Source: an uncultured Alphaproteobacteria bacterium (GTDB lineage Bacteria; Pseudomonadota; Alphaproteobacteria; Reyranellales; Reyranellaceae). From it: a stretch of 64,000 nt of DNA. The position numbers were made by a program, and so were the translations under genes. The notes beneath the pieces are model-generated. The model saw only the letters and a list, made by a program, of their open reading frames with translations, was not told the DNA's origin and did not search any database. The stretch covers positions 74,250 to 138,249 of the forward strand of contig CAVXZJ010000010.1 of the NCBI GenBank assembly GCA_963766285.1, given 5' to 3'. Below, in pieces: positions 8,583 through 58,662 of this stretch (within the stretch, counting starts at the first letter, position 1; every line of letters begins with the position of its first letter).

Positions 8583-9562
8583 TCAATCGCCCTTGATGTC
8601 GTTTTCCTTGATCACCTTGAACCAGCGCTCCTGTTCGCTCTTCTGATAGGCGGCGAATTCCTCGGGCGCTGGTGGTCAGGATCTCCATGTTGAACTGCTC
8701 GACGAACTTCTGCGTCACGTCGGGCGAGCGCACGGCCTTGGCGATCTCGGCATGCATCCTGTCGATGATCGGCCGCGGCACGCCCGCCGGGCAGTAGACG
8801 CCCCACCAGGAGTAGGACGGAAAGCTCTTCACGTTCTGCTCGATCAGCGTCGACGTGTCGGGCAACGCCGGCGTGCGCTTCTCGCTCGTCACGGCGATCG
8901 GGCGCACCTTCTTCGAATTGATGTGCGGGCTCACCGAGGTGAGGCTCTGGATGGCGACGTCAGTGACGCCGGCCAGCAGGTCCTGGTTGACCGGTCCGCC
9001 GCCCTTGTAGGGGATGACGTTGAGGTCGACGTCGTTTTCCTTCCTGATGTACGCCATCAGCACCAGCGCCTGGCTCGCGCCCAGCACACCGACGCTCACC
9101 TTGCCAGGCCGCTTCTTGGCGTCCTCGATCACCTCGGCGAACGTCTTGTAGGGACGGTCGGGATGGGCGCAGATCGCCTGCGGCGTGCGGCCGATCTCCA
9201 TGACGTTGAACAGGTCGGAGTCCTTGTACGGCAGGGTGCGCCGCGAAGGCCGGATTGAGGATGTGACTGTCGAAGGTGATCATCCAGGTCTGGCCGTCGG
9301 GCGGCGACTTTGCGGCGACGGACGCGCCGACCACGCTGGCGCCACCCGGCTTGTTGTCGACGATGATGTTCCAGCCGGTCTGGTCGGCGAGCTTGGCCTG
9401 GATGATGCGCGCTACCGGATCGGTCGAGCCGCCGGGCGGGAAGGGCACGACGATCTTGAGCTGGCCCTTGGGCCAGTCGCCGGTGCCCTGGGCGCGGACG
9501 ATAGCGGGGCTGGCGAGAGCGGCGGCGCCCGCAAGCACTGCGCGGCGGCGTAGGATCGTCAT
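8583..9562 (-). CDS. Bug/TctC substrate-binding protein, tandem paralog (frameshifts ~9240 and ~8665)
   Basis: VVPFPPGGSTD, IVDNKPGG, PYKGGGP, WWGVYCPAGVP; closely similar to the adjacent gene. Confidence 0.88.
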
Positions 9563-9605
9563 GGAAGTTCTCCCGGTCTTTTCATGTGGCTTGGTTGGCG
9601 GCACA

Positions 9606-10073
9606 CTACTTCAGCGGCTTGCTCATGGGAAAGCCCGAGGCCGTGCCGAATTGTCCCGCCGGCCGTCCGTTTTCCACGTAGCCGTTGGCGAGATAGAAGC
9701 GCCGCGCCGTGGCCGTGCTCGCCAGAGTGCAGCGATCGACGCCACGTTCGATCGCGCGTTGCTCGAGGGCTTTGAGGACCGCCCGACTCGCGCCCCGGAA
9801 GCGCGCGTCGGGCGAGACATAGTTCAAGGTGGTCTCGCCGCTGTTGCGGACGGCGCCGACGGCCAGGATGCGGTCGTCCTCGACGGCGACCAGCACCGAA
9901 TTATCCGGCTCGGCAAGCCAGCGCCTGAAGATCTCCGGCTTCTTGTTGGCCAGCCACGCCTCGAGGATCGCGGGATGGCCGCGGTGATCGGCCTCGCAGA
10001 GTTCGGCGATCAAGCGCCGCATGACCTCGCAGGCGGCTTCCGCGTCGGCCGGTATGGCATCCCGTATTTCCAT
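9606..10073 (-). CDS. GNAT family N-acetyltransferase
   Basis: MEIRDA start, [10 protein letters not shown] motif [11 protein letters not shown]. Confidence 0.88.
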
Positions 10074-10137
10074 GATGGCAGAAGGGCATAGCGCGATCTT
10101 TTTGCAAAGAGCCACCCGAGTCGCTATTTACCCCTTT

Positions 10138-11586
10138 ATGTCACTGATCAAAGGCGAAACCGGCGACTGGGAGATCGTGCTTGGGCTCGAAGTCCATGCC
10201 CAGGTGATCTCCGACGCCAAGCTCTTCTCCGGCGCACCGACCAGCTTCGGCGCCGATCCCAACACCCAGGTGTCGCTGGTCGACGCCGCCATGCCCGGCA
10301 TGCTGCCCGTGATCAACGAGCGTTGCGTGGAACAGGCGGTGCGCACCGGTCTTGGCCTCAACGCCAAGATCAACCTGCGCTCGGTGTTCGACCGCAAGAA
10401 CTACTTCTACGCCGATCTGCCGCAGGGCTATCAGATCTCGCAGTTCAAGGACCCGATCGTGGGCGAGGGCGCGGTCGAGATCGATCTCGAGGGCGGCGGC
10501 ACCAAGACGATCGGTATCGAGCGACTGCATCTCGAGCAGGATGCAGGCAAGAGCCTGCACGACCAGCACCCGAGCCAGACCTATGTCGACCTGAACCGCT
10601 CGGGTGTGGCACTGATGGAGATCGTGAGCCGGCCCGACATGCGCAATGCCGACGAGGCGGCGGCGTACCTGACCAAGCTGCGCTCGATCGTGCGCTATCT
10701 CGGCACCTGCGACGGCAACATGGACGAGGGCTCCATGCGCTGCGACGTCAACGTGTCGGTGCGCAAGCCCGGCGATCCGCTGGGCACGCGCTGCGAGATC
10801 AAGAACGTGAACTCGATCCGCTTCGTGAAGCAGGCCATCGAGTACGAAGCGCGCCGCCAGGTCGAGGTGATCGAAGGCGGTGGCAAGATCGTGCAGGAGA
10901 CGCGCCAGTTCGAGCCGGCCAAGGGCGAGACGCGCGCGTCGCGCTCGAAGGAAGATGCGCACGACTATCGCTACTTCCCCGATCCGGACCTGTTGCCGCT
11001 GGTGATGACGCAGGAATTCGTCGACGGCATCAAGGCGACCCTGCCCGAGCTGCCCGACGCCCGTAAGGCGCGCTTCATCAAGGAATACGGCCTCACGCCC
11101 TACGACGCAGGCGTGCTGGTCCTCGAGAAGGAGACGGCGGCCTTCTTCGACGGCGTGGCCAAGGGGCGCGATGCCAAGGAGGCCGTGAAGCTGGTCACCG
11201 GCGACTTCTTCGCCATGCTGAACCGGCGCGGCGTATCGATCGCCGGGTCGCCGATCACGGCGGCGCATCTCGGCAAGCTGCTCGACCTCCAGAAGGACGG
11301 CACCATTTCGGGCCGAATCGCCAAGGACCTGTTCGTGGCGATGGAGGAGACCGGCAAGGATCCGGCCGTGCTCGTCGAGGAGCGTGGGCTGCGGCAGGTC
11401 ACGGACACCGGCGCGATCGAAGCGGCGATCAAGGAGATCATCGCAGCGAATCCCAAGCAGGTCGAAGCCTACAAGGCCAAGCCCACGATGATGGGCTGGT
11501 TCGTCGGCCAGGTGATGAAGTCGACCGGCGGCAAGGCCAATCCCAAGATCGTCAACGAGCTGCTGAAGAAGGCGCTCGACTCTTGA
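10138..11586 (+). CDS. gatB: Asp-tRNA(Asn)/Glu-tRNA(Gln) amidotransferase subunit B
   Basis: [52 protein letters not shown]. Confidence 0.98.
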
Positions 11587-30766: not shown

Positions 30767-30859
30767 GGAGGGGTGGCCGAGTGGCCGAAGGCGGCGGTTT
30801 GCTAAACCGTTATAGGGAGATAATCCCTATCGTGGGTTCGAATCCCATCCCCTCCGCCA
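30767..30859 (+). tRNA. tRNA-Ser(GCT)
   Basis: GGAGGGG/CCCTCCG acceptor arm with encoded CCA, anticodon GCT at 30801-30803, long variable arm, GGTTCGAATCC T-loop. Confidence 0.97.
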
Positions 30860-32219: not shown

Positions 32220-34522
32220 ATGCTTGACCAGGCAAGTCCACTCGAGATCGACCTCGGCCGCCCGATCGGCGTCAGTCCGCAACTCTCCGCGCACGTCACC
32301 GACGAACGTCGCGTCCTGCTGCTGGGTGAGTCCCGCAGCTTTCGCCTGGGCGGCAAGCTCTATGTCGCGCTGCTGCCCTTCCTTGACGGCACCCGTACAG
32401 GGCAGCAGGTCGTGGAAGCCTTCGCCGGCCGCGTCGCAGCCGACCGCCTGCGTTCGGTCCTGCAGGACATGCTCAAGAAGGAATACATCCGCTATATCGA
32501 TCCGGCGGCGCCGATGGCGCGTCAGGCACTGTGGGTCGAACTCGGGCTTTCGCCGGCAGAGGCCGAGCGGCGTTTGCGCGGCCAGTCGCTGGCGGTAAAG
32601 GCCGCGTCCCGGGACGGATCGCTGGCAGTGGCGGCAAAGGCGCTGAAGCAGGCGCTGGTGGCCAGCGGAATGCCCGTTGTGGCCGCGAAAGACGCCGCAA
32701 TCGTCGTCATGGTTGTCGACGATTACCTGCGGCGCGATCTGGCGGTCGTGAACCGGCGCATGCGCAAGGCGGGCCGCTCGTGGATCCCGTTCAAGGCCGG
32801 TGGCAGCATGCCGATGATCGGCCCGCTGTTCCGTCCGGACCGAGCGCCGTGCTGGGCGTGCCTGGCGAACTTCATCGTCGAGAACCGGCCGGGCGACAGG
32901 GTCGTCGATCAGACGCTCGAAGCGGTGCGGCCCGCCAGGGCCCGGACACCGGCGACCCTGGCGATGGCCGCAGGCTTCGGAGCACTGGAACTCGCGCGCG
33001 AGCTTGCCGGCGAGCAGCCCGCAGGGCTCGAACGCCACGTGCTGAGCTTCGACCTGAAGGAGCGTGCCTTCAGGCGACACGAGATCCGGATCGATGCCAA
33101 TTGTCCGGTGTGCGGCACTCGTGAGAAGCCGCGCGCCGTGCTGGAGCGCGCCAAACGGCCGATCGTGCTGCGCCCGCAACCGGTCCAGCCACAGGTCGAC
33201 GGCGGCTGGCGCACGCTCACCGCCGAGCAGGTCGTGCAGAAGCTCGACCGCTATGTCAGCCCGATCACGGGCATCATCTCCGGACTGGAAGACATGTCGC
33301 TCGGACTGGGCCTGCCGGTGTTCGCCGCACGACAGACCAATCCCGTGCCTGTCGGTCCGCGGCAGAACCGCCTGATCGGCCGTCCCAGCGGCGCGGCCGG
33401 CAAGGGCATGAGCGAGGCGCAGGCCAAGGCGAGCTGTCTCGCGGAGGCAGTCGAGCGCTACCTCTGCGGCTACACCGGACGGGAGCCGCGCATGCGTGCG
33501 ACATGGGATCGCGTCAGGAAACAGGCGCCGCATCCCTGCACCTACCTGAACTACAGCGAGCATCAGTACGATATCCGCGAGGAGTGGAACAAAGCCAATG
33601 GCGGCTTCAATTGGGTAGGCGAGCGTTTCGACGAGACGCGGGCGATCGAGTGGACGCCGGCCTGGTCGCTGAGCCGCAATGCGCTGCGCTGGCTGCCGAC
33701 GCGCTATTGCTATTTCAACTACAGCGACACCGTGGAAGGCGAAGAGAATATCTTCTGCCGCGGCAACTCCAACGGCTGTGCCTCCGGCAGCACCATCGAG
33801 GAAGCGATCGTTCAGGGGTTCTTCGAACTGATCGAACGCGATGCGTGCGCTCTGTGGTGGTACAACCGCGTCCGCCGCCCGGCATTCGACCTCGACGCGC
33901 TGGACGACCCCTTCGTCCGCCGCGCGCGCGCCTGGGCGGCCGCCCGCAAGCGCGGCGTATCGGTTCTCGATCTGACGACCGATCTCGGCCTGCCGGTGGC
34001 GATGGCTGTGTCGCACAGCCTGGCCGATGGCGGTTCGATCGTTTTCGGGTTGGGCGCGCATTTCGATCCCGCCATCGCCGTGAGCCGCGCCCTGGCCGAG
34101 CTCAATCAGCTGGCCTCGCTGGAGGACATCAAGGCGATCAAGGAAGCACCGGACGCCGCGGGCGATCCTGTCGATACGATGGTGGAGTGGCTGCGCGGCC
34201 ACACGCTCGAGACCGATCCGTATTGCGTGCCGGATGGCGTCGTGTCGACGGGGCGGTACGCTGCTCCGCCGATCGGCGACCTCAAGCAGGCGGTCGGAGC
34301 GTTGTGTCCGTGCCGTCTCGGATCGCGGTTACGACATGATCGTGCTCGACCATCTCGCGGGCCGAGGTGGATTTCGCCGCCGCGCGCGTGGTCGTGCCGG
34401 GCCTGCGTCACTTCTGGGCGCGGCTGCGCGAGGGCCGGCTCTACCGTGCGCCGGTCGACATGGGCTGGCTCGGCGCGCCGCATGCGGAAGCGGATCTCAA
34501 CCCGGTGCCATTTTTCCTGTGA
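32220..34522 (+). CDS. Fused RRE/E1-like-YcaO cyclodehydratase of a TOMM/LAP RiPP pathway (frameshifts ~34305 and ~34350)
   Basis: PCWAC and CPVC Zn motifs, SCLAEAVERY and NSNGCASG...FFELIERD YcaO motifs. After frame correction it ends RVVVPGLRHFWARL...LNPVPFFL* (TGA 34520-34522). The 1217-aa ORF call is an artefactual fusion. Confidence 0.9.
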
Positions 34523-34529
34523 GGCTCCC

Positions 34530-35873
34530 GTGACCGGCGTCGTCGACCTCGTCTACCGTTTCGAACCCGACGTGCAGAAGGTCGAGCGCACGGGCGATGG
34601 GATCGCGATCCATGTCAGGAACTGGAAGACCCTGAACGTTTCACCGCCGACGGCGGCGGGCGCGAACGCGATCGTCGCGCTGATGGACGGCGCCACCCTC
34701 GAACGTCTCGCGCAAATCGGCGGCTCGACCGGGATCGCCAGCCACTACGCCGAACGATTCTCGCGGGCGCGCCTGCTGGTATGGGACATCGTCGACGCAG
34801 AGGGACCGCTGGCCCGTGCGACCTCGCTGACGGCGGGCTACCGGCCGCGCGAAGATGCGCCACCCGAACAGCCGCTCGCCCTCAGCCGCTTTGCCTATCT
34901 GCGTGCGGATGGCCCGCGCATGATCGTCGAGTCGGGGCTCGTGCGGGCGTGCCTCGTGCTCGAGCCGCGCGGACTGGCGGCACTCGCGCGTTCGCTGGAA
35001 CATCCGCACACCGCCGCTGTCGACGATTTTGCCGGCGTACTTTGGCGGATGGGCTTCTTCGAGCCGGCAGGCCTCGAGGAGAGCGACGTCCGGGCCTGCT
35101 GGGAGTTTCACGATCTCCTGATGCACGAGCAGAGCCGGTTCAATCGCAGCCAGCCGCGCCGCGGCCTTTACCGGCTGGAAAGCAAGGTCCCCGAGCCCCC
35201 CGCGGTGAAGCCCGCGATGCCCGGCACCCGCATTGCCTTGCCCGCGGTCGAGACGGCGCGCCTGGCGAGCTCCAGCGGGCGGCTGGAAGACGTCCAGGAC
35301 CGCCGGCGCTCGCTGCGCGCCTACGCCGACAGGCCGCTGCCGCTGCAGGCTCTTGGCGAATTCCTCTGGCGGACGGCCCGCACGCGAGCGAGCTTCGACG
35401 CCGGTGGGCATTCGCTGCTGACGCGCGGCTATCCCGCAGGCGGCAGCATCCATGAACTCGAATTCTACGTCGCCGTGCGCTCCTGCGAGGGACTCGAGCC
35501 GGCGCTTCATCACTACGACAGCCACGGCCATGCGATGATCCGGCTCGAAGGATCGGCCAGGGGCGCCGCCCGGATCGTCGAGAACGCGTTTGCGGCGATG
35601 GCGCTGGAGCCCGGGCAGGTCATGCCGCAGGCCGTCATCGTGCTGGCCTCGCGCGTGCCGCGGCTTGCCTGGAAATACGAGGGTGTCGCCTACCGCCTCG
35701 CGCTCCTCAACGCCGGCGTGGTGATCGAACTCATGTATCTGGTAGCGACCGACATGCGGTTGTCGCCGTGCGCCAACGGCTCGGCCAATTCGCGCCCGTT
35801 CGAGGAGTCGACGGGCCTCGATCCCCTCGCCGAAACCGCACTGGCCGAGTTTTGCCTCGGCGTGCCTGCGTGA
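34530..35873 (+). CDS. SagB-type FMN-dependent peptide dehydrogenase
   Basis: GTG start 7 nt after the YcaO stop; WEFHDLLMH, RRRSLRAY, YPAGGSIHELEFY, AWKY, LNAGV. Confidence 0.9.
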   Translation: MTGVVDLVYRFEPDVQKVERTGDGIAIHVRNWKTLNVSPPTAAGANAIVALMDGATLERLAQIGGSTGIASHYAERFSRARLLVWDIVDAEGPLARATSLTAGYRPREDAPPEQPLALSRFAYLRADGPRMIVESGLVRACLVLEPRGLAALARSLEHPHTAAVDDFAGVLWRMGFFEPAGLEESDVRACWEFHDLLMHEQSRFNRSQPRRGLYRLESKVPEPPAVKPAMPGTRIALPAVETARLASSSGRLEDVQDRRRSLRAYADRPLPLQALGEFLWRTARTRASFDAGGHSLLTRGYPAGGSIHELEFYVAVRSCEGLEPALHHYDSHGHAMIRLEGSARGAARIVENAFAAMALEPGQVMPQAVIVLASRVPRLAWKYEGVAYRLALLNAGVVIELMYLVATDMRLSPCANGSANSRPFEESTGLDPLAETALAEFCLGVPA

Positions 35874-46348: not shown

Positions 46349-47996
46349 GTGGAAAGTTTCGACTACGTCATCGTGGGCGCCGGCTCGGCCGGCAGCGTGC
46401 TCGCCAGCCGGCTGAGCGAGGACGGCAAGGCGACGGTCTGCGTGCTGGAGGCGGGGCCGTCGGATTGGCATCCTTTCATCCATATCCCGGCCGGTTTCAT
46501 GTATACGCTGGTCAATCCCAGGGTGAACTGGCTCTACACGTCCGAGCCCAGCGAGTGGACGGGCGGCCGGCGCATTGCCGCGCCCCGCGGCAAGACATTG
46601 GGCGGCTCGAGCTCGATCAACGGCCACATCTACAATCGCGGCCAGCGCCTGGATTTCGACGGCTGGGCGCAGCGCGGCAATCGCGGCTGGGGCTATTCCG
46701 ACGTGCTGCCGTACTTTCGTCGGACCGAACACCGCATGGCGAGCGCCAACGACGCCGATTCGACGTTCCGCGGCAGCGACGGCAATTTGCCGATCACCGA
46801 TCTGGAATGGCGCGATCCTTTGTGCGAGGCCTTCATCGAGGGCGCGGTCCAGATGGGCATCCCGCGCAACAGCGACTACAACGGCGCCCGCCAGCAGGGG
46901 GTGAGCTACGTCCAGCGCATCATCCGCAACGGCCGGAGAGTCAGCGCCGCGCGCGGTTACCTGCATCCGGCGATGAAGCGCGCCAATCTCGACGTGTGCA
47001 CGCACGCCCATGCGACGGAGATCGTGCTCGAGGGCAAGCGCGCGGTCGGCGTCCGGTATCGCAAGGGCGGCAGGGACGGCGCGCCGATGGAAGTGCGCGC
47101 GGCGAAGGAAGTGATCCTGTGCGGCGGGGCGGTGAACTCGCCGCAGCTCCTGCAGGTCTCGGGCATCGGCCCGGCGCCGCTGCTGCAGTCGCTTGGGATT
47201 ACGGTGAAGCATGCGCTGGCAGGCGTCGGCGAGAACCTGCGCGACCACTACGCGCCGCGCTTCGTGGCGAGGGTCAAGAACGCCGGAACGATCAACGAGA
47301 AGTCGCACGGCCTCAGGCTGGTCGGCGAGGTGATGAAATACGCCGTGGCGCGCAAGGGCATCCTCGCGCTCAATCCGACCCTGATCTACGTGTTCTGGAA
47401 GTCCGACGAGGCGGTCGACAACTACGACCTGCAATTCACCTTCACACCCGCGAGCTACAAGGAAGGCGTGCAGTCGAAGCTCGACGACTTTCCCGGCATG
47501 ACCATCGCGTCGTGGCAGCAGCGGCCGGACAGTGTCGGCTATGTGCGCGCGAAATCCTCCGATCCGTTCGCGGCGCCGACCATCCAGCCCAATTACCTGG
47601 CTGCGGAAAGCGACCGGAGGGTCCTGCTGGCCGGCATGAAGATCGCGCGCCGGCTGCTGAGGTCGCAGGCGCTCAGCAAGTACTACGATCGCGAGGAGTT
47701 TCCCGGCGCCGAGAAGCAGTCCGACGAAGAGCTGATGACGGCCGCCAAGCAGCGCGGCACGACGACCTTTCATCTGATGGGGACGTGCCGCATGGCGCCC
47801 GACAGCGATCCGACATCGGTGGTCGACGACCAGCTTCGCGTGCGCGGCCTCGAAGGCCTGCGCGTCGTCGACGCCTCGGTGATGCCCACCATGCCGTCCG
47901 CGAATCTCAACGCCTCGGTGCTGATGATCGCCGAGAAGGCCGCCGACATGATCCGCGGCAAGGCGGCTCTCGAGTTCGGTCAAGCTCGCCGATTGA
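46349..47996 (+). CDS. GMC oxidoreductase (choline dehydrogenase-like); true stop probably 47994-47996
   Basis: GAGSAG, RGKTLGGSSSING, GENLRDH, FHLMGTCRM, DASVMP...N.NA. An extra T at ~47975 fuses it to the MFS gene in the ORF track. Confidence 0.9.
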
Positions 47997-48049
47997 GAAG
48001 CGGACTCGGCTCGGCTAGGCTGAAGCCGCAGTTCGGGGGAGTTTCAGTC

Positions 48050-49306
48050 CTGGAAAAGCCCAACACGCGCCGGGTCGTCATGGCGGGCGCGATCGGCAAC
48101 GTGCTCGAATGGTACGACTTCGCGGTCTATGGCTACTTCGCCGCCGCCATCGGGCGTGCGTTCTTTCCCAAGGAAGATCCGGTCGCGCAGGTGCTCGCAG
48201 CCTTCGGCATCTTCGCCGTGGGCTTCCTCATGCGCCCCGTGGGTGGCGCTCTGTTGGGTTACGTCGGCGACAGGTTTGGACGCCGCACCGCGCTTACCGT
48301 ATCGGTGGCGGCGATGGCGATCCCGACGTTCCTGGTAGGCGTGCTGCCGGGTTACGCCGTGCTGGGCGTGGCGGCGCCCTTCGTGCTGACGGCCTTGCGC
48401 ATGATCCAGGGACTCTCGGTCGGTGGCGAATATACGACCTCGATCGTCTTCATGGTCGAGCATGCACCTCCCGGGCAGCGTGGTTTCATCGGCGCCATGG
48501 CCGGCTGCGGCGCAATCGGCGGCATTCTCCTGGGCTCGGCGACGGGAGCCATCCTGGCGCAGCTCATGCCCGCTGACACCCTCGAGGCCTGGGGCTGGCG
48601 CATCCCGTTCGTGCTGGGGTTGCTGGTCGGACTGGCGGGCTACTTCCTGCGGCGCACGCTCGTCGATGAGCCGCGCACCCGGGCGTCGGGCCGCTCGCCG
48701 TTCGTCGAGACCGTCCGCACGCACTGGCCGGTCCTGCTGCGCCTGTCCGGCCTTTCCTGCTTCAACGCCGTCGGCTTCTATCTCTCCTTCGTCTACATCG
48801 TGAGCTGGCTGCAATTCGCCGACGGCATCGCCCCGGCCCATGCGCTGGGCATCAACACGTTCAGCATGGTCGCCATGCTGCTGGTCATGGTGGGGGCCGG
48901 CTTGCTGTCCGATCGCATCGGCCGCAGGCCGGTGCTGCTGATCGCCACCACCATCGGCGTGGTGGGGGCGTACCCTTTCTTCTGGCTGATGTATCACGGC
49001 GAGGTCAGCGTGATCCTGCTCGGGCAGCTTGGCTTCGCCCTGGCTGTCGGCATGTTCGTCGGTGCCCAGCCCACGGCCATGGTCGAGGCGGCGCCGGTCG
49101 AGGTGCGGTGCACGGCGATCGCGCTCGGCTACAACCTGACCCTCGGCCTCGTGGGCGGCGTGAGCCCGATGGTCGCGACCTGGCTCGTCCATCGTACCGG
49201 CGACAATCTCATGCCGGCCTTCCTGATCATGGCGGCGGCGGCGATTTCGTTCGTCGCCACCCTGTTCCTCAAGGACGCAAGCCGCGACGCCCTGGCGATA
49301 GCCTAG
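48050..49306 (+). CDS. MFS transporter, MHS/ProP-like (start approximate)
   Basis: GNVLEWYDFAVYG, GFLMRPVGG, GDRFGRR, QGLSVGGEY, WGWRIPF. Confidence 0.92.
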   Translation: MEKPNTRRVVMAGAIGNVLEWYDFAVYGYFAAAIGRAFFPKEDPVAQVLAAFGIFAVGFLMRPVGGALLGYVGDRFGRRTALTVSVAAMAIPTFLVGVLPGYAVLGVAAPFVLTALRMIQGLSVGGEYTTSIVFMVEHAPPGQRGFIGAMAGCGAIGGILLGSATGAILAQLMPADTLEAWGWRIPFVLGLLVGLAGYFLRRTLVDEPRTRASGRSPFVETVRTHWPVLLRLSGLSCFNAVGFYLSFVYIVSWLQFADGIAPAHALGINTFSMVAMLLVMVGAGLLSDRIGRRPVLLIATTIGVVGAYPFFWLMYHGEVSVILLGQLGFALAVGMFVGAQPTAMVEAAPVEVRCTAIALGYNLTLGLVGGVSPMVATWLVHRTGDNLMPAFLIMAAAAISFVATLFLKDASRDALAIA

Positions 49307-54593: not shown

Positions 54594-54833
54594 ATGAATC
54601 GCATCTTGCTCGTCATCGCGCTCGCCACCGTCGCGGGCACGGCAATGGCCCAGGAAGCAGAAACCGATCCGGCCGCCACGGCTGCCCGGCAGGAAATCGA
54701 ACGGTCGGGTTATCGCGACGTTCGCGGCTTGGCGCAGGATTCGGACGGCGTCTGGCACGGTCGCGCCCTTCGCGGCGATACGGAAATGCAGTTGCTCGTG
54801 GATCCGGACGGCAAGGTGTCGGTCAATCGATGA
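54594..54833 (+). CDS. Small secreted PepSY-like protein
   Basis: Signal peptide; IERSGYRDVRGL..DSDGVWHGRA...VDPDGKV; AGGAGG RBS. Confidence 0.75.
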   Translation: MNRILLVIALATVAGTAMAQEAETDPAATAARQEIERSGYRDVRGLAQDSDGVWHGRALRGDTEMQLLVDPDGKVSVNR

Positions 54834-55087
54834 AGAGCGCGCTTCTTCTGGTGACGATGACGGTCGCGGCACTGCCGGCCGCGGCCCAGACCCGCGCGCC
54901 GGCTGCGGCGAACCAGACCAACGCGGGCGGGACGGCCACCGTGCAGTCGCACATGAAGTCACTGGGCTACAAGGACATCCATGACCTGCGTCAAGGGCCT
55001 GACGGTCAATGGATCGGCAAGGCCACCCAGAACGGCGTCGAGCACACAGTGACCGTCGAGCCGAACGGAACGACCACCGCGCGCTAA
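54830..55087 (+). CDS. Small secreted PepSY-like protein
   Basis: Signal peptide; MKSLGYKDIHDL..GPDGQWIGKATQNG...VEPNG; ATGA overlap with the upstream gene. Confidence 0.75.
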   Translation: MKSALLLVTMTVAALPAAAQTRAPAAANQTNAGGTATVQSHMKSLGYKDIHDLRQGPDGQWIGKATQNGVEHTVTVEPNGTTTAR

Positions 55088-55173
55088 AGTTCCTTTCGAA
55101 CGAGCGCCGCGCCCTCTGCGAGCGCTTTCAACTTTCCGAACGCCGTCGCACGCGGCAGATACTTCATGCCGCA
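55084..55173 (-). pseudogene. Displaced 3' end of the MetE-like gene
   Basis: Encodes CGMKYLPRATAFGKLKALAEGAALVRKEL*, homologous to the current tail CGMKYLSRATAYGKLAALVEGTRIVRRELS* at 57631-57723. Confidence 0.88.
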
Positions 55174-55190
55174 AATTTCACCGCCAATAA

Positions 55191-55290
55191 AATCAATGAG
55201 TTACAGGGTGATGGGACAAAGGTGGGACCGATATTGCACGCCACAATTTCTGTCATCCAAATAATCAATGACTTACTGGGTGGTGGGACA
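55191..55290. repeat. 28-bp imperfect direct repeat at the island end
   Basis: AATCAATGAGTTACAGGGTGATGGGACA (55191) vs AATCAATGACTTACTGGGTGGTGGGACA (55263), 25/28 identical. Confidence 0.8.
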
Positions 55291-55305
55291 ATTTCCTGGT
55301 GCGCG

Positions 55306-56261
55306 CTAGAGCGGATTCCGATTGGGTAGACCATAGCCAGCGTTGATGAAGTAGTTTTCACATTCGTTGGAGCTGAAGTGTTGGAGGAGTTGGCCGACGG
55401 CGTCCCACAGTGTGCTGATGGTGCGTGCGGCGGCTTTGCGCAGCAGGGCTTTGAGCTTGGCGAAGACCTGTTCTATCGGATTGAGGTCCGGACTGTACGG
55501 CGGCAGGTAGAGAAGATGGGCGCCGACAGCCTCGATCGCGATGCGCACGCCGGCACCCTTGTGGGAGCCCAGATTGTCCATGACGACGATATCGCCGGCG
55601 GCCAGGGTCGGAACCAGGAACTGCTCGACATAGGCGGTGAAGGTCTCGCCGTTGATTGGTCCGTCGATGACGCACGGCGCGGTGATGGCATCGCGGCGCA
55701 GGGCGGCGAGGAAGGTGCTGGTCGTCCAATGCCCGTGCGGTACCGAGGCAACCAGGCGCTGGCCACGTGGAGCACGGCCGTAGGGCCGTGCCATGTTCGT
55801 CTTCACCCAGGTCTCGTCGATGAAGACAAGGCTCGCCGGAGTCAGGTCCGGCTGGGCCTCTCGCCAGATCGCGCGCGAGGCGGCAACGTCCGGCCGCTCT
55901 TGCTCGGCAGCATGGAGCGTCTTTTTTTACGCGTCAGCCCGAGCGCCTCCAGATAGCGGTGGAGCGATGTGCGGCCCACCGTGATCCCCTCGACCATCAA
56001 CTGATCCCGCAGCTCGTCGAGTGTGTGATCGGGATGGTTCGACACCAGGTGGCGCACCAATGTCCTATGCGGTGCCAGCACGAACGATTTCTTGGCCCCC
56101 TTGGACGGCGCCACGCTCCCCGTTCGCTTCCAGTGCCGTATAAGCTTGATCGCGCAGCTCTCGCTGACGGCGAACCGCTTGGCCGCCGCCCGGCGCGATA
56201 GACCGTTCTCAACCGCCACGACAATCCGCTTGCGAAGATCCAAGGAAAGGGCTCGGGCCAT
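55306..56261 (-). CDS. IS630 transposase, orfA/orfB joined by a -1 frameshift
   Basis: MARALSLDLRKRIV HTH; A7 run at 55922-55928; VFIDETWVKTNM, VMDNLGSHK, LPPYSPDLNPIEQVFAKLK. Confidence 0.93.
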
Positions 56262-56357
56262 TCATGCTGGCCTCCTGCGATCCAGCCCTAAGCTTAAATC
56301 ACACTTCGAGACCAAACGGAATCAACTTCCGAGTCCTCCAAACAGGAATGTGCTCTA
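55307..56357 (-). mobile_element. IS630-family insertion sequence
   Basis: TA duplication at both ends; terminal inverted repeats TAGAGC(GG/AC)ATTCC. Confidence 0.92.
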
Positions 56358-56420
56358 GCTTTTCAAATCGGATAGCGGACGTGAGGTGGCCATCACGAAA
56401 CCGACCTGCTAGAAGTCTAC

Positions 56421-57401
56421 CTAGAGCGTGAGATTGCCGTAGTCGTGGGTGTATTCACCCGCCTGAAAATCTCCCAACCGTTGGTTTATGCTCTTGCCCG
56501 GCCAAAGATAGTCGACCCGCTTCTCTGCCGGCCAATAAACTGCCGTGTACACTGTAGGAAACGACGCTCTGCGCGAATAGAGAGGCGGTGACTGGAAGCT
56601 CTCAATGAGCTGCGAAAGCGTTAATCCAGGTTGTGACAGACGACGGGCAAGTGCGTCGCGGCGTTCAACCGTTAGATTTGCGGCGGCGTTTGTCGGCCAG
56701 ACAACGTGCTCCTGATGATTGGTGCAGATGGGTTCGGTCGTTACCAATGGTGTTCGGTCAGGACCGAGGAATAGCGTCGCGAAGCGTCCCGACTTGTCGA
56801 GCAACGTCACATTTTGCGATTGAGCAATGGGAACCCGGCTCAGCGCTACGATGGCTTCGCTGACGTTCCGGCAAGTCTCCAGAACGTAGCGTAGGATTAT
56901 GATGATTGCGAAACCACGCCCCTGCGCAGGGCTACCTCCAAACGTCAGGCTTGCAACAAGTCCGTCCTCGTTCATTCCATCGAGACAACCTCCCCAGGGT
57001 CGCTGCGACTTTGAAATCACTTCGCGCCCGAACCACGCCGTAGACTCGAAGCGGTCGGTGACAATATCCAGACTGAAATCGTAGTTGCGCACGAGCGCGG
57101 GGCCGCAGTTGCCGAGCCAGACGGCGTGACTGCACCCGCTAACTTCGGGCGATGGACGATAGTGGCTTAGAATTTGATGGGCGCGCTCGTCGTCACCGAC
57201 CATGTCGCATACACGATCATAGTGTGGCAGCAGCTCGGGCATATGGTTGAACAGGGCTGCTCGGCATTCAATGGCCGAGGGTGGAGTAGCTCGCCCAGCC
57301 CCCAAGTACCACTGCTCGGTCTCTGCGCGGCCAGCCACGAAGCGTCTGAGCCAATCATGGTCGGGCTGACTTTCGCGAGCGAATATAAAGCGCTTAAGCA
57401 T
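56421..57401 (-). CDS. C45-family Ntn cysteine hydrolase (acyl-CoA:6-APA acyltransferase-like)
   Basis: SGCS nucleophile context, LVRNYDF, GCLDGMNEDGL, RYVLETC, CTNHQ. Confidence 0.85.
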   Translation of the reverse strand: MLKRFIFARESQPDHDWLRRFVAGRAETEQWYLGAGRATPPSAIECRAALFNHMPELLPHYDRVCDMVGDDERAHQILSHYRPSPEVSGCSHAVWLGNCGPALVRNYDFSLDIVTDRFESTAWFGREVISKSQRPWGGCLDGMNEDGLVASLTFGGSPAQGRGFAIIIILRYVLETCRNVSEAIVALSRVPIAQSQNVTLLDKSGRFATLFLGPDRTPLVTTEPICTNHQEHVVWPTNAAANLTVERRDALARRLSQPGLTLSQLIESFQSPPLYSRRASFPTVYTAVYWPAEKRVDYLWPGKSINQRLGDFQAGEYTHDYGNLTL

Positions 57402-57630
57402 TTGTCGAGGATAGTCCGGTCAGGCCATGTCCGCCATCGAGGGCAAAGCGGGCTCGTTGCGACCATCACGAAATCGAGGCTCGTGTCACATAGCGTCATT
57501 TCGCGGTGCGGCGGAATTTGGTCGCTATCGGGCATAGGGCCGCCGTCTTTCGGTCGAGGTGGGACAGTTTGAGACGAAACGACCACGAGCCCCGGCGAGC
57601 CCCAGCGAGCAAAAGTGGGACTGTCCCACC

Positions 57631-58662
57631 CTATGACAGCTCACGTCGGACAATGCGGGTGCCTTCAACTAGGGCAGCGAGTTTCCCGTATGCGGTCGCG
57701 CGGCTTAAATACTTCATGCCGCAGTCGGGCGCCGGCAGCAGCTTGTCCGGCGACAGATATTTCAGCCCCGCGCGGATACGCTCGGCGATCTTCTGCGGTG
57801 TCTCGATCTCGGGATCGCTGAGGTCGATCACGCCCAGCATGACCTTCTTGGGCGCGAGATCCTTCAGTACGCCGAGGTCGATTTTGGGCTGTGCCAATTC
57901 GATCGAGATCTGCTGGGCGATCGTGTCGGAGAGTTGCGGCAGGAATGAATAGCCGGTGGGCTTGAGGCCGGTGACGACGGCGGCATAGCCGAAGCACAGA
58001 TGCACGACGGTCGGCACCGTGATGCCCTGCAGCGCGCGGTTGATCGCCTTCACGGCGTAGCGGCTGGCCTCTTCGGGATTGTTGCGCAGCCATGGCTCGT
58101 CGAGCTGGATCACGTCGGCGCCGGCCTTCACCAGGTCGAGCGCCTCGGCGTTCACCGCAGCGGCGTAGTCCATGCACATCTCTTCATTGTCCTTGTAGAA
58201 CTCGTTCTTCACCTGCTGGCCCATGGTGAAGGGGCCGGGCAGGGTGATCTTGGCGAGCTTGGCCGTATTGGCGCGCAGGAACTGCATGTCGCGCAGCTCG
58301 ACGGGACGGGTGCGCCTGATCTTGCCGACGACGCGTGGCACCGGCGTCCTGTTGCCGCCGCGATTGACCAGCTCGAACGGATGTTCGTCGTCGACGCCCT
58401 CGAGCGCCGTCGCGAACCGGTTGGAATAGCTTTCGCGCCGGATCTCGCCGTCGGTCACGATGTCGATGCCGGCCCGTTCCATGTCGCGGATGGCCAGCAG
58501 CGTGGCGTCGTCCTGCGCCTGCTCGAGATAGGCTTCGTCGACCCTCCACAGTTCCTTGTAACGCGTGCGCGGCACGATCTTGCTCAGCATCGCGCGGTTC
58601 ACCAGCCAGTCGGGCTGGGGGTAGGAGCCGACGACGGTCGTCTGCAGCAGAGGCTCGGCCAT
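57631..58662 (-). CDS. Cobalamin-independent methionine synthase, short MetE-like catalytic domain
   Basis: TTVVGSYPQP, GIDIVTDGEIRR, IQLDEP, VHLCFG, APDCG. Confidence 0.92.
   Translation of the reverse strand: MAEPLLQTTVVGSYPQPDWLVNRAMLSKIVPRTRYKELWRVDEAYLEQAQDDATLLAIRDMERAGIDIVTDGEIRRESYSNRFATALEGVDDEHPFELVNRGGNRTPVPRVVGKIRRTRPVELRDMQFLRANTAKLAKITLPGPFTMGQQVKNEFYKDNEEMCMDYAAAVNAEALDLVKAGADVIQLDEPWLRNNPEEASRYAVKAINRALQGITVPTVVHLCFGYAAVVTGLKPTGYSFLPQLSDTIAQQISIELAQPKIDLGVLKDLAPKKVMLGVIDLSDPEIETPQKIAERIRAGLKYLSPDKLLPAPDCGMKYLSRATAYGKLAALVEGTRIVRRELS

Follow-up and report, generated by a model that had tools for sequence, protein, structure and literature searches.

A small att-flanked element without an integrase, probably a site-specific insertion that restores the 3' end of a MetE-like gene in a Reyranellaceae genome

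Prophages, integrative and conjugative elements (ICEs), integrative and mobilizable elements (IMEs) and genomic islands insert at the 3' ends of genes, among them those for tRNA and transfer-messenger RNA (tmRNA) as well as fda, rpsI, rplL and guaA, and they bring a replacement end for the gene that they enter. In the lambda-type attachment site of an element (attP), a core is flanked by P and P' arms, which carry repeated arm-type sites for a heterobivalent tyrosine integrase and accessory proteins. The first cis-mobilizable elements (CIMEs) to be described reportedly belonged to the ICESt1/ICESt3 family, which occupies the 3' end of fda in Streptococcus thermophilus. By definition, a CIME is without integration and transfer genes and keeps its attL and attR (PMC5704250). 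Here we analyse 64,000 nucleotides of DNA from an uncultured Reyranellaceae bacterium (Alphaproteobacteria; contig CAVXZJ010000010.1, positions 74,250 to 138,249), referred to below as the window, in which the 3' end of a methionine synthase (MetE)-like gene is occupied by a 2550-bp insert. With a probability of roughly 0.8, we regard positions 55174-57708 as a small, att-flanked, site-specific integrative element of CIME-like type, which has no integrase and would depend on a recombinase acting in trans.

The starting evidence consists of a short direct repeat and two homologous gene ends. An earlier note on this DNA, made from the letters alone, had pointed to a 15-mer present at 55159 and 57709, 2550 bp apart, and to a homologous tail after each copy on the minus strand. 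Both observations hold. The 15-mer, ATACTTCATGCCGCA, has exactly two copies in the window, no further match when one mismatch is allowed and 0 matches in 100 shuffles, and the identity of the two copies ends at both edges (G at 55158 versus A at 57708, and A at 55174 versus G at 57724). On the minus strand both copies read CGMKY, whose Cys we take, from established knowledge of MetE, to be a Zn ligand, and both are followed in frame by homologous, MetE-like C-termini with the translations that the note had given: CGMKYLPRATAFGKLKALAEGAALVRKEL and a stop at 55084-55173, to which no gene body is attached (the orphan tail), and CGMKYLSRATAYGKLAALVEGTRIVRRELS and a stop at 57631-57723, which forms the end of a 343-aa open reading frame (ORF) at 57631-58662 (the in-use tail). 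Counted from the sequences, the two tails are identical at 21 of 29 residues, and the DNA past the core at 39 of 75 nucleotides. On the 5' side of the orphan core the frame gives IDFIGGEI, which is not MetE-like, and the end-to-end homology begins precisely at the core. The orphan stop interlocks with the stop of a PepSY-like gene, again as described before, in a CTAA overlap at 55084-55087 within GCGCGCTAAAGTTCC; the PepSY-like TAA occupies 55085-55087, and the orphan TAG is read on the opposite strand at 55084-55086. The remark that the TTA and CTA codons of the in-use tail are atypical is likewise borne out by the Leu codons of 21 window genes (TTA 0/951, CTA 6/951), and the GC content at third codon positions (GC3) is 0.58 in the in-use tail versus 0.89 in the gene body.

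The protein of the target gene matches Pfam Meth_synt_2 with 115 bits and falls under every NCBIfam methionine-synthase equivalog cut-off (best 254 versus 392). Its nearest solved structure is that of a B12-independent methionine synthase (3RPD, E = 4.8e-55), which is aligned up to the last residues and places the Cys of the window CGM on that of its own CGM. On these matches 'MetE-like' is the right name for the gene, methionine synthase function being putative. The two small PepSY-like genes beyond the orphan tail have weak Pfam PepSY_2 matches, below the cut-off (16.7 and 22.4 versus 24.3 bits).

Relatives indicate which of the two tails is native. A scan in which each species was represented by a single genome gave 80 loci; closest among them are those from metagenome-assembled genomes of Reyranella and other Rhodospirillales, with 82-86% protein identity. 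All 16 close genomic relatives (16/16) carry a single tail, which is identical to the orphan tail at 23-28 of 29 positions and to the in-use tail at 20-24 of 30. From a large protein collection we compared the 120 closest proteins (83-92% identity), 119 of which have a recognisable tail; none of these resembles the in-use tail more than the orphan tail, and two resemble both equally. The in-use residues Y12, A16 and T22 occur in 0 of the 119, and every invariant position is retained. At five loci (L005, L006, L007, L009 and L012) the stop of the metE-like gene abuts the converging PepSY-like gene with no island between them, and the attB reconstructed for the window from gene body, core, orphan tail and PepSY-like gene is colinear with all five. 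Further empty sites, in which a metE-like gene converges on PepSY-like genes, are found at L087-L089 and L161-L163; island-free convergence was recovered at ten loci of relatives. L184, which among relatives on long contigs is the closest (92% protein identity), matches the window colinearly on either side of the site and has no insert. Because the single tails of the relatives are orphan-like and their loci are without the island, the orphan tail is evidently the native one and the in-use tail the imported one, and an empty site exists. What the earlier note had proposed to look for, a metE-like gene directly convergent on a PepSY-like pair and carrying one native-type tail, is present in relatives, and no relative carries both tails, which that note had named as the finding that would speak against an insertion. 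For annotation, the C-terminus of the MetE-like gene should be read as chimeric, and the short orphan fragment beside the PepSY-like genes as the native gene end, not as a separately derived pseudogene. A protein search with the tail only (40 aa) yielded only three tails, all of native type and located at contig ends or in a frameshifted gene, and no element-type tail; an exact look-up of the window MetE-like and C45 proteins in public assemblies gave no match.

The spacer between the metE-like and PepSY-like genes varies in Reyranella relatives from 0 to ~6 kb and holds ordinary-looking genes and no second tail. The metE-PepSY gaps of L001, L002, L011 and L014 were considered as sister islands and rejected, each having a single tail and ordinary genes. 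In L184 the spacer is 134 nt, AT-rich and contains a hairpin. The intergenic site seems prone to other insertions too. Two metE-like paralogues lie in tandem in L017 (8001-9026, 76% identical to the query, and 9149-10168, 55%), both with a complete tail of their own. In two ENA metagenome contigs (L088:1139-2192 and L089:65-1107) two ORFs are called for the metE-like gene, owing to a frameshift or an assembly error, and these split calls give rise to the 69-aa 'partial' protein P0122.

The earlier note had treated the 2550 bp as one island. This stands for 1501 bp, which make up the element, whereas the other 1049 bp are a secondary, later insertion of an insertion sequence (IS) of the IS630 family that is absent from metagenomic relatives. 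The element consists of the replacement tail, two GTGGGAC-rich arms and one C45/AAT gene, and the GC content across the insert is 0.52-0.59 versus ~0.65 in the flanks (coordinates in Table 1). Of the two modules in the P arm, the second opens with a decayed core-like GATATTGCACGCCACA; each closes with AATCAATGA.TTAC.GGGTG.TGGGACAA, and GGTGGGACC lies between them. The P' arm shows the palindrome GTGGGACtGTCCCAC (57615-57630) immediately after the in-use stop, followed by GC-rich short repeats at 57586-57612, GGTGGGACA at 57558-57566 and a dispersed repeat at 57487-57532. All three exact window matches of GGTGGGACA lie inside the insert, and the 7-mer GTGGGAC/GTCCCAC has nine occurrences in the window, of which 234 nt from the two arms contain five (Poisson p = 5.6e-12). 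The hairpin that follows the in-use stop folds no better than shuffles and is not convincing as a terminator, and scans for Rfam families and tRNAs gave no match in the insert region.

The 326-aa cargo protein matches Pfam AAT with 114.9 bits and NCBIfam C45_proenzyme with 129 bits, and its gene has a GC content of 0.57 and a GC3 of 0.62. Rhodospirillales frequently have C45 homologues with 65-79% identity, which lie in unrelated contexts and without a metE tail or the arms; because they always sit in such other contexts, the gene is, on this comparison, acquired cargo and not a native neighbour of the metE-like gene. The only close C45 homologue (P0001, 91%, JGI sample 3300067032) lies on a contig of 1587 bp, approximately the size of the IS-free element, together with a 52-aa partial ORF in the same orientation that ends 215 nt upstream (the window gap is 229 nt); this contig is probably the same element as that of the window.

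The IS630 copy has the TA(G) duplication and the imperfect terminal inverted repeats (I2) that mark its family. Its transposase reading frame is broken at an A7 run (coding strand, GTAAAAAAAGAC) into one ORF at 55842-56261 and another at 55306-55806; the break may reflect programmed frameshifting or a frameshift that inactivates the enzyme. Our metagenome evidence comes from Logan contigs of public sequencing runs (numbered X). Position 55309 is joined there directly to CTTTTCAAATCG, which corresponds to 56359 onward, in runs X23, X43, X44 and X37; in sample S7 (runs X7 and X23) it is a 113-nt contig that passes from the P arm through 55309 straight into CTTTTCAAATCG. Because of these IS-free alleles, the IS630 copy is best read as a late event in the lineage of the window, both of its flanks having been contiguous beforehand. 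IS630-like sequence in general is very abundant in soil runs, with depths up to ~2000.

Soil metagenomes contain related elements in all the architectures that a site-specific element would produce, namely attB, attL, attR and joined ends. Contigs of attL type come from X23 (434 nt), X37 (612 nt) and X44 (590 nt). The first of these (sample S7, runs X7 and X23) runs from the metE body through the core and an element-type tail into the hairpin, and the other two, which stem from another study, carry a variant element-type tail, LSRSTAYGKLR. Contigs of attR type without IS630 were found in X44 (872 nt), X37 (333 nt) and X45 (255 nt), those of X44 and X37 comprising the PepSY-like gene, a native-type tail, the core, both P-arm modules and the unfilled IS site. 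Empty attB sites are present in X44, in a 605-nt contig with a depth of 19.6, above that of the attR contig, and in X47; the order in X44 is PepSY-like gene, tail, core and metE body, and the metE body in X47 encodes SPDKLLPAPD, as in the window. Together with the empty sites in relatives, these contigs uphold the central proposal of the earlier note, that a metE-like gene is the attB site and that the insert brings a replacement C-terminus.

Joined ends, in which tail, core and P arm follow one another as in an attP, occur in contigs from four studies (X7, 48 nt; X37, 660 nt; X44, 261 nt; X46, an RNA library in which DNA may be present; and X49). The 48-nt contig consists of GTCGCGCGGCTTAA, the core and the beginning of the P arm, AATTTCACCGCC, and hence joins the in-use tail to that arm; at its ends it overlaps neighbouring contigs by 30 nt, as would be expected for a branch in a k = 31 assembly graph. 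The X37 and X44 contigs extend from a P' segment that differs from the window at 4 of 137 positions (57586-57722) across the core to a diverged P arm, which is not the P arm of the attR contigs in the same runs; the depths are similar (4-6). Because the P arms differ while the depths are similar, a tandem array of two related elements would fit these two contigs better than a circle.

The arms recur where the cargo does not. The P arm is found at 85-97% identity in metagenome contigs of several studies, words from it occur in runs of seven studies, and 57487-57723 is conserved in X7. Coverage of the C45 gene is zero at >=80% identity in X44, X37, X43 and X45 and essentially none at >=88% in X7 and X23; because these runs bear the family and do not cover the gene, family members, judged by coverage, share arms and not cargo. 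The two-module structure of the P arm is conserved in relatives and is probably functional rather than just a scar.

To account for these observations, we envision a Campbell-type entry, in which the 15-bp core within the CGMKY codons of the MetE-like gene (attB) would recombine with the same core in the attP of the element. The element's copy of the last 25 codons, which lies beside the core, would then complete the interrupted gene, and the native tail would be left stranded at the far end. Integration, and any excision, would need an enzyme supplied in trans, because the element encodes no recombinase of its own. The insert contains only the C45 gene and the IS630 transposase, and Pfam scans of the 48 window ORFs revealed no integrase, resolvase or other recombinase apart from that transposase. 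The 15-bp core, the conserved arm lengths (~125-220 and ~150 bp) and the repeated motifs in both orientations make the tyrosine integrase of a related autonomous element the most likely recombinase, and we infer both its supply in trans and the continued competence of the window copy. Among the features of a site-specific, gene-restoring element, the core repeat, the empty site and a frame-keeping 3' end are present, the in-use tail retaining all invariant family positions and aligning to the end of 3RPD; an integrase of its own is absent. The opinion of the earlier note that the element has lost its integrase is correct as to absence. As to loss it finds no support, as there is no sign that IS630 deleted an adjoining recombination module and the IS-free relatives show no missing module.

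Several points weigh against our interpretation. The trans-acting enzyme is hypothetical, with no recombinase in the element or among the 48 window ORFs and no integrase-bearing relative. The earlier note had suggested a search for integrase-bearing elements with the core and its repeats, and none came to light in the loci, viral contigs and plasmids searched: the relatives' loci scanned showed neither GTGGGAC clusters nor arm similarity; pattern scans of viral contigs gave 0 matches for the P-arm motif, 0 for the attP junction and 19 unrelated ones for the 16-nt palindrome; comparison of the MetE-like protein with the viral contig collection found no provirus-borne relative; a plasmid search with the attR region returned metE-like genes only; and no integrase-bearing family member was found among the fetched loci and the viral contigs. 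The Logan contigs are short, and which of them share a genome cannot be told. Window-identical pieces, including the IS630/cargo junction, were found in one soil run only (X1, depth 3-4), and none of them spans a core; joined ends are a feature of the contigs of relatives (X7, X37, X44, X46 and X49). These P'-core-P junctions stem from relatives with different cargo, and circle, tandem array and free replicon cannot be told apart. The decayed core-like sequence at the start of the second P-arm module could be a relic of an earlier accretion, in which case part of the structure may be a relic as well.

Some of the same points feed an alternative that we consider unlikely, in which the insert is an immobile fossil of a larger integrase-bearing island or prophage whose recombination module has been deleted. 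The missing integrase, the landing of IS630 inside the insert, the decayed core-like copy in the P arm and the lack of excision data for the source strain are all compatible with a dead remnant. Against it, the two 15-bp cores are identical, both arms keep their motifs, and the arms are 85-97% identical in relatives with different cargo, which suggests selection on the att regions. Family members are moreover joined end to end in four studies, and the IS-free relatives give no indication that an adjoining module was removed by the IS. Far less probable is a history without site specificity, whereby a foreign metE-like 3' end and the DNA downstream of it arrived by homologous or illegitimate recombination, or the tail was duplicated locally. 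The homology of the two tails would agree with it, as would the existence of lineages (L161-L163, the loci of two intermediate tails) whose native tail, LSRATAFGKLRALVEG, shares 25 of 30 positions with the in-use tail. At the orphan end, however, the homology sets in exactly at the core, with nothing metE-like upstream; the tails are only 39/75 identical past the core, so that a recent duplication does not apply; C45 homologues elsewhere do not adjoin metE-like genes; and several variants have this very core at the junction of their attL, attR and P'-core-P contigs. An assembly artefact at the short repeat, a risk that the earlier note had raised, is scarcely credible even though source-strain reads cover neither core, as independent contigs from other samples show homologous attL and attR architectures of related elements, the window-identical X1 contigs cross the IS630/cargo junction, and assembly k-mers are usually longer than 15 bp, the length of the repeat.

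Preferring, then, a trans-mobilised, site-specific element, we also entertain a wider possibility, which we hold to be doubtful. The MetE-like 3' end might be a gene-capture platform in soil Reyranellaceae, at which very small, recombinase-less cassettes with interchangeable cargo would be inserted, stacked and exchanged by a dedicated recombinase encoded elsewhere. Each cassette would consist of a lambda-like attP, with its replacement tail and repeat-rich arms, around the cargo, and the whole would be analogous in function to an integron, although placed on the end of a coding gene and using arm-type att sites.

Table 1. Coordinates of the insert and its surroundings in the window, and of spacers at related loci
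Feature	Position	Strand	Remarks
PepSY-like gene pair	54594-54833 and 54830-55087	+	chromosomal flank; converges on metE-like gene in relatives too
Orphan tail, assigned as native, LPRATAFGKLKALAEGAALVRKEL and stop	55084-55158	-	B' side of attR
Core copy 1 (attR), ATACTTCATGCCGCA	55159-55173		encodes CGMKY on minus strand
P arm	55174-55309		two ~62-nt modules 72 bp apart, 55158-55219 and 55230-55291 (repeat family D1)
IS630-family insertion, 1049 bp	55310-56358	-	Pfam HTH + DDE_3, NCBIfam transpos_IS630
Putative cargo gene, 326-aa C45-family autoproteolytic acyltransferase/hydrolase (AAT)	56421-57401	-	Pfam, NCBIfam
P' arm, non-coding	57402-57630		palindrome, GC-rich short repeats, GGTGGGACA, 46-nt dispersed repeat
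In-use replacement tail, LSRATAYGKLAALVEGTRIVRRELS and stop	57631-57708	-	assigned as element-supplied; P' side of attL
Core copy 2 (attL)	57709-57723		
Target-gene body, 343-aa Meth_synt_2 (MetE catalytic-domain-like) protein	57724-58662	-	Pfam
metE-to-PepSY spacers in relatives	L001:9029-10467, L002:9029-14948, L011:9026-13311, L014:1644-3660, L004:9032-9668		

Some further observations concern repeats in the insert and genes elsewhere in the window. The dispersed repeat of the P' arm, the 46-nt CACATAGCGTCATTTCGCGGTGCGGCGGAATTTGGTCGCTATCGGG (57487-57532, possibly from 57447), has a depth of ~165 in X7 versus ~6 for its neighbours and occurs there with many flanks; it matches no Rfam family. 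A copy with 89% identity lies just 3' of a C45 gene in L112 (5145-5191). Direct repeats of 31 nt with 74% identity (family D4) stand one on each side of the C45 gene, at 56374-56404 and 57447-57477, and may be pieces of the 46-nt repeat or a trace of cargo acquisition. At some distance from the insert, a tRNA-Ser(GCT) gene occupies 30767-30859, with no integrase adjoining it. Located ~1.4 kb 3' of this gene, at 32220-35873, is a 1217-aa fusion of winged helix-turn-helix, YcaO cyclodehydratase, ThcOx and nitroreductase domains, possibly an azoline-forming enzyme for ribosomally synthesized and post-translationally modified peptides. The 985-aa ORF at 46349-49306, the longest in its stretch, combines a GMC oxidoreductase with a major facilitator superfamily (MFS)/sugar transporter; either the fusion is genuine, or the mechanical ORF call has merged two neighbouring genes.

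The present locus adds a MetE-like (Meth_synt_2) gene to the protein-coding attachment sites. In a limited full-text literature search we found no report of such a target, and PMC10322971 describes no metE site; the target may nonetheless have been described elsewhere. It also presents a very small, att-flanked, recombinase-less element in an alphaproteobacterial soil lineage, with relatives whose sites are empty or filled and whose elements are joined end to end. If the cognate integrase is found, the pair would constitute a compact, gene-restoring integration system, and a tractable case for the spread of single genes by trans-mobilised mini-islands.

Set against integrative elements at gene 3' ends in general, the window element shares the core within the gene as a direct repeat, the imported end, the stranded native end and the empty sites, and differs in that no integrase adjoins its att site. 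Its conserved att-proximal segments of ~125-220 bp (P') and ~150 bp (P), the 7-9-nt motif that occurs six times, in either orientation, and the second repeated motif AATCAATGA recall a lambda attP, whereas the motifs are candidate arm sites that may belong to a different protein or have no binding partner. Integron gene cassettes are similar in being small, promoter-poor, often single-gene units without a recombinase of their own, with one site and in arrays of variable cargo; their difference lies in the attachment site, which is here within a coding gene, and in the long arms with direct repeats at the ends. Identity with an integron cassette was rejected, there being no IntI-like ORF among the 48 window ORFs and no GTTRRRY in the core TGCGGCATGAAGTAT. 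The closest resemblance is to CIMEs: attL and attR flank the element at the 3' end of a protein-coding gene, it has no integration or transfer genes, and CIMEs occur in tandem with related elements by accretion, an arrangement that is also the simplest reading of the X37 and X44 contigs. It departs from them in comprising only 1.5 kb and one gene, in its alphaproteobacterial host and in its target gene; for this element no cognate ICE, IME or integrase was found, and its descent from an ICE or IME is only a possibility. The window element would therefore work like a CIME and is classed as one only provisionally. Taken together, it is a further example of an already known type of mobile element, in which the small size, the absence of a recombinase, the relatives with variable cargo and the polymorphism of the site stand out.

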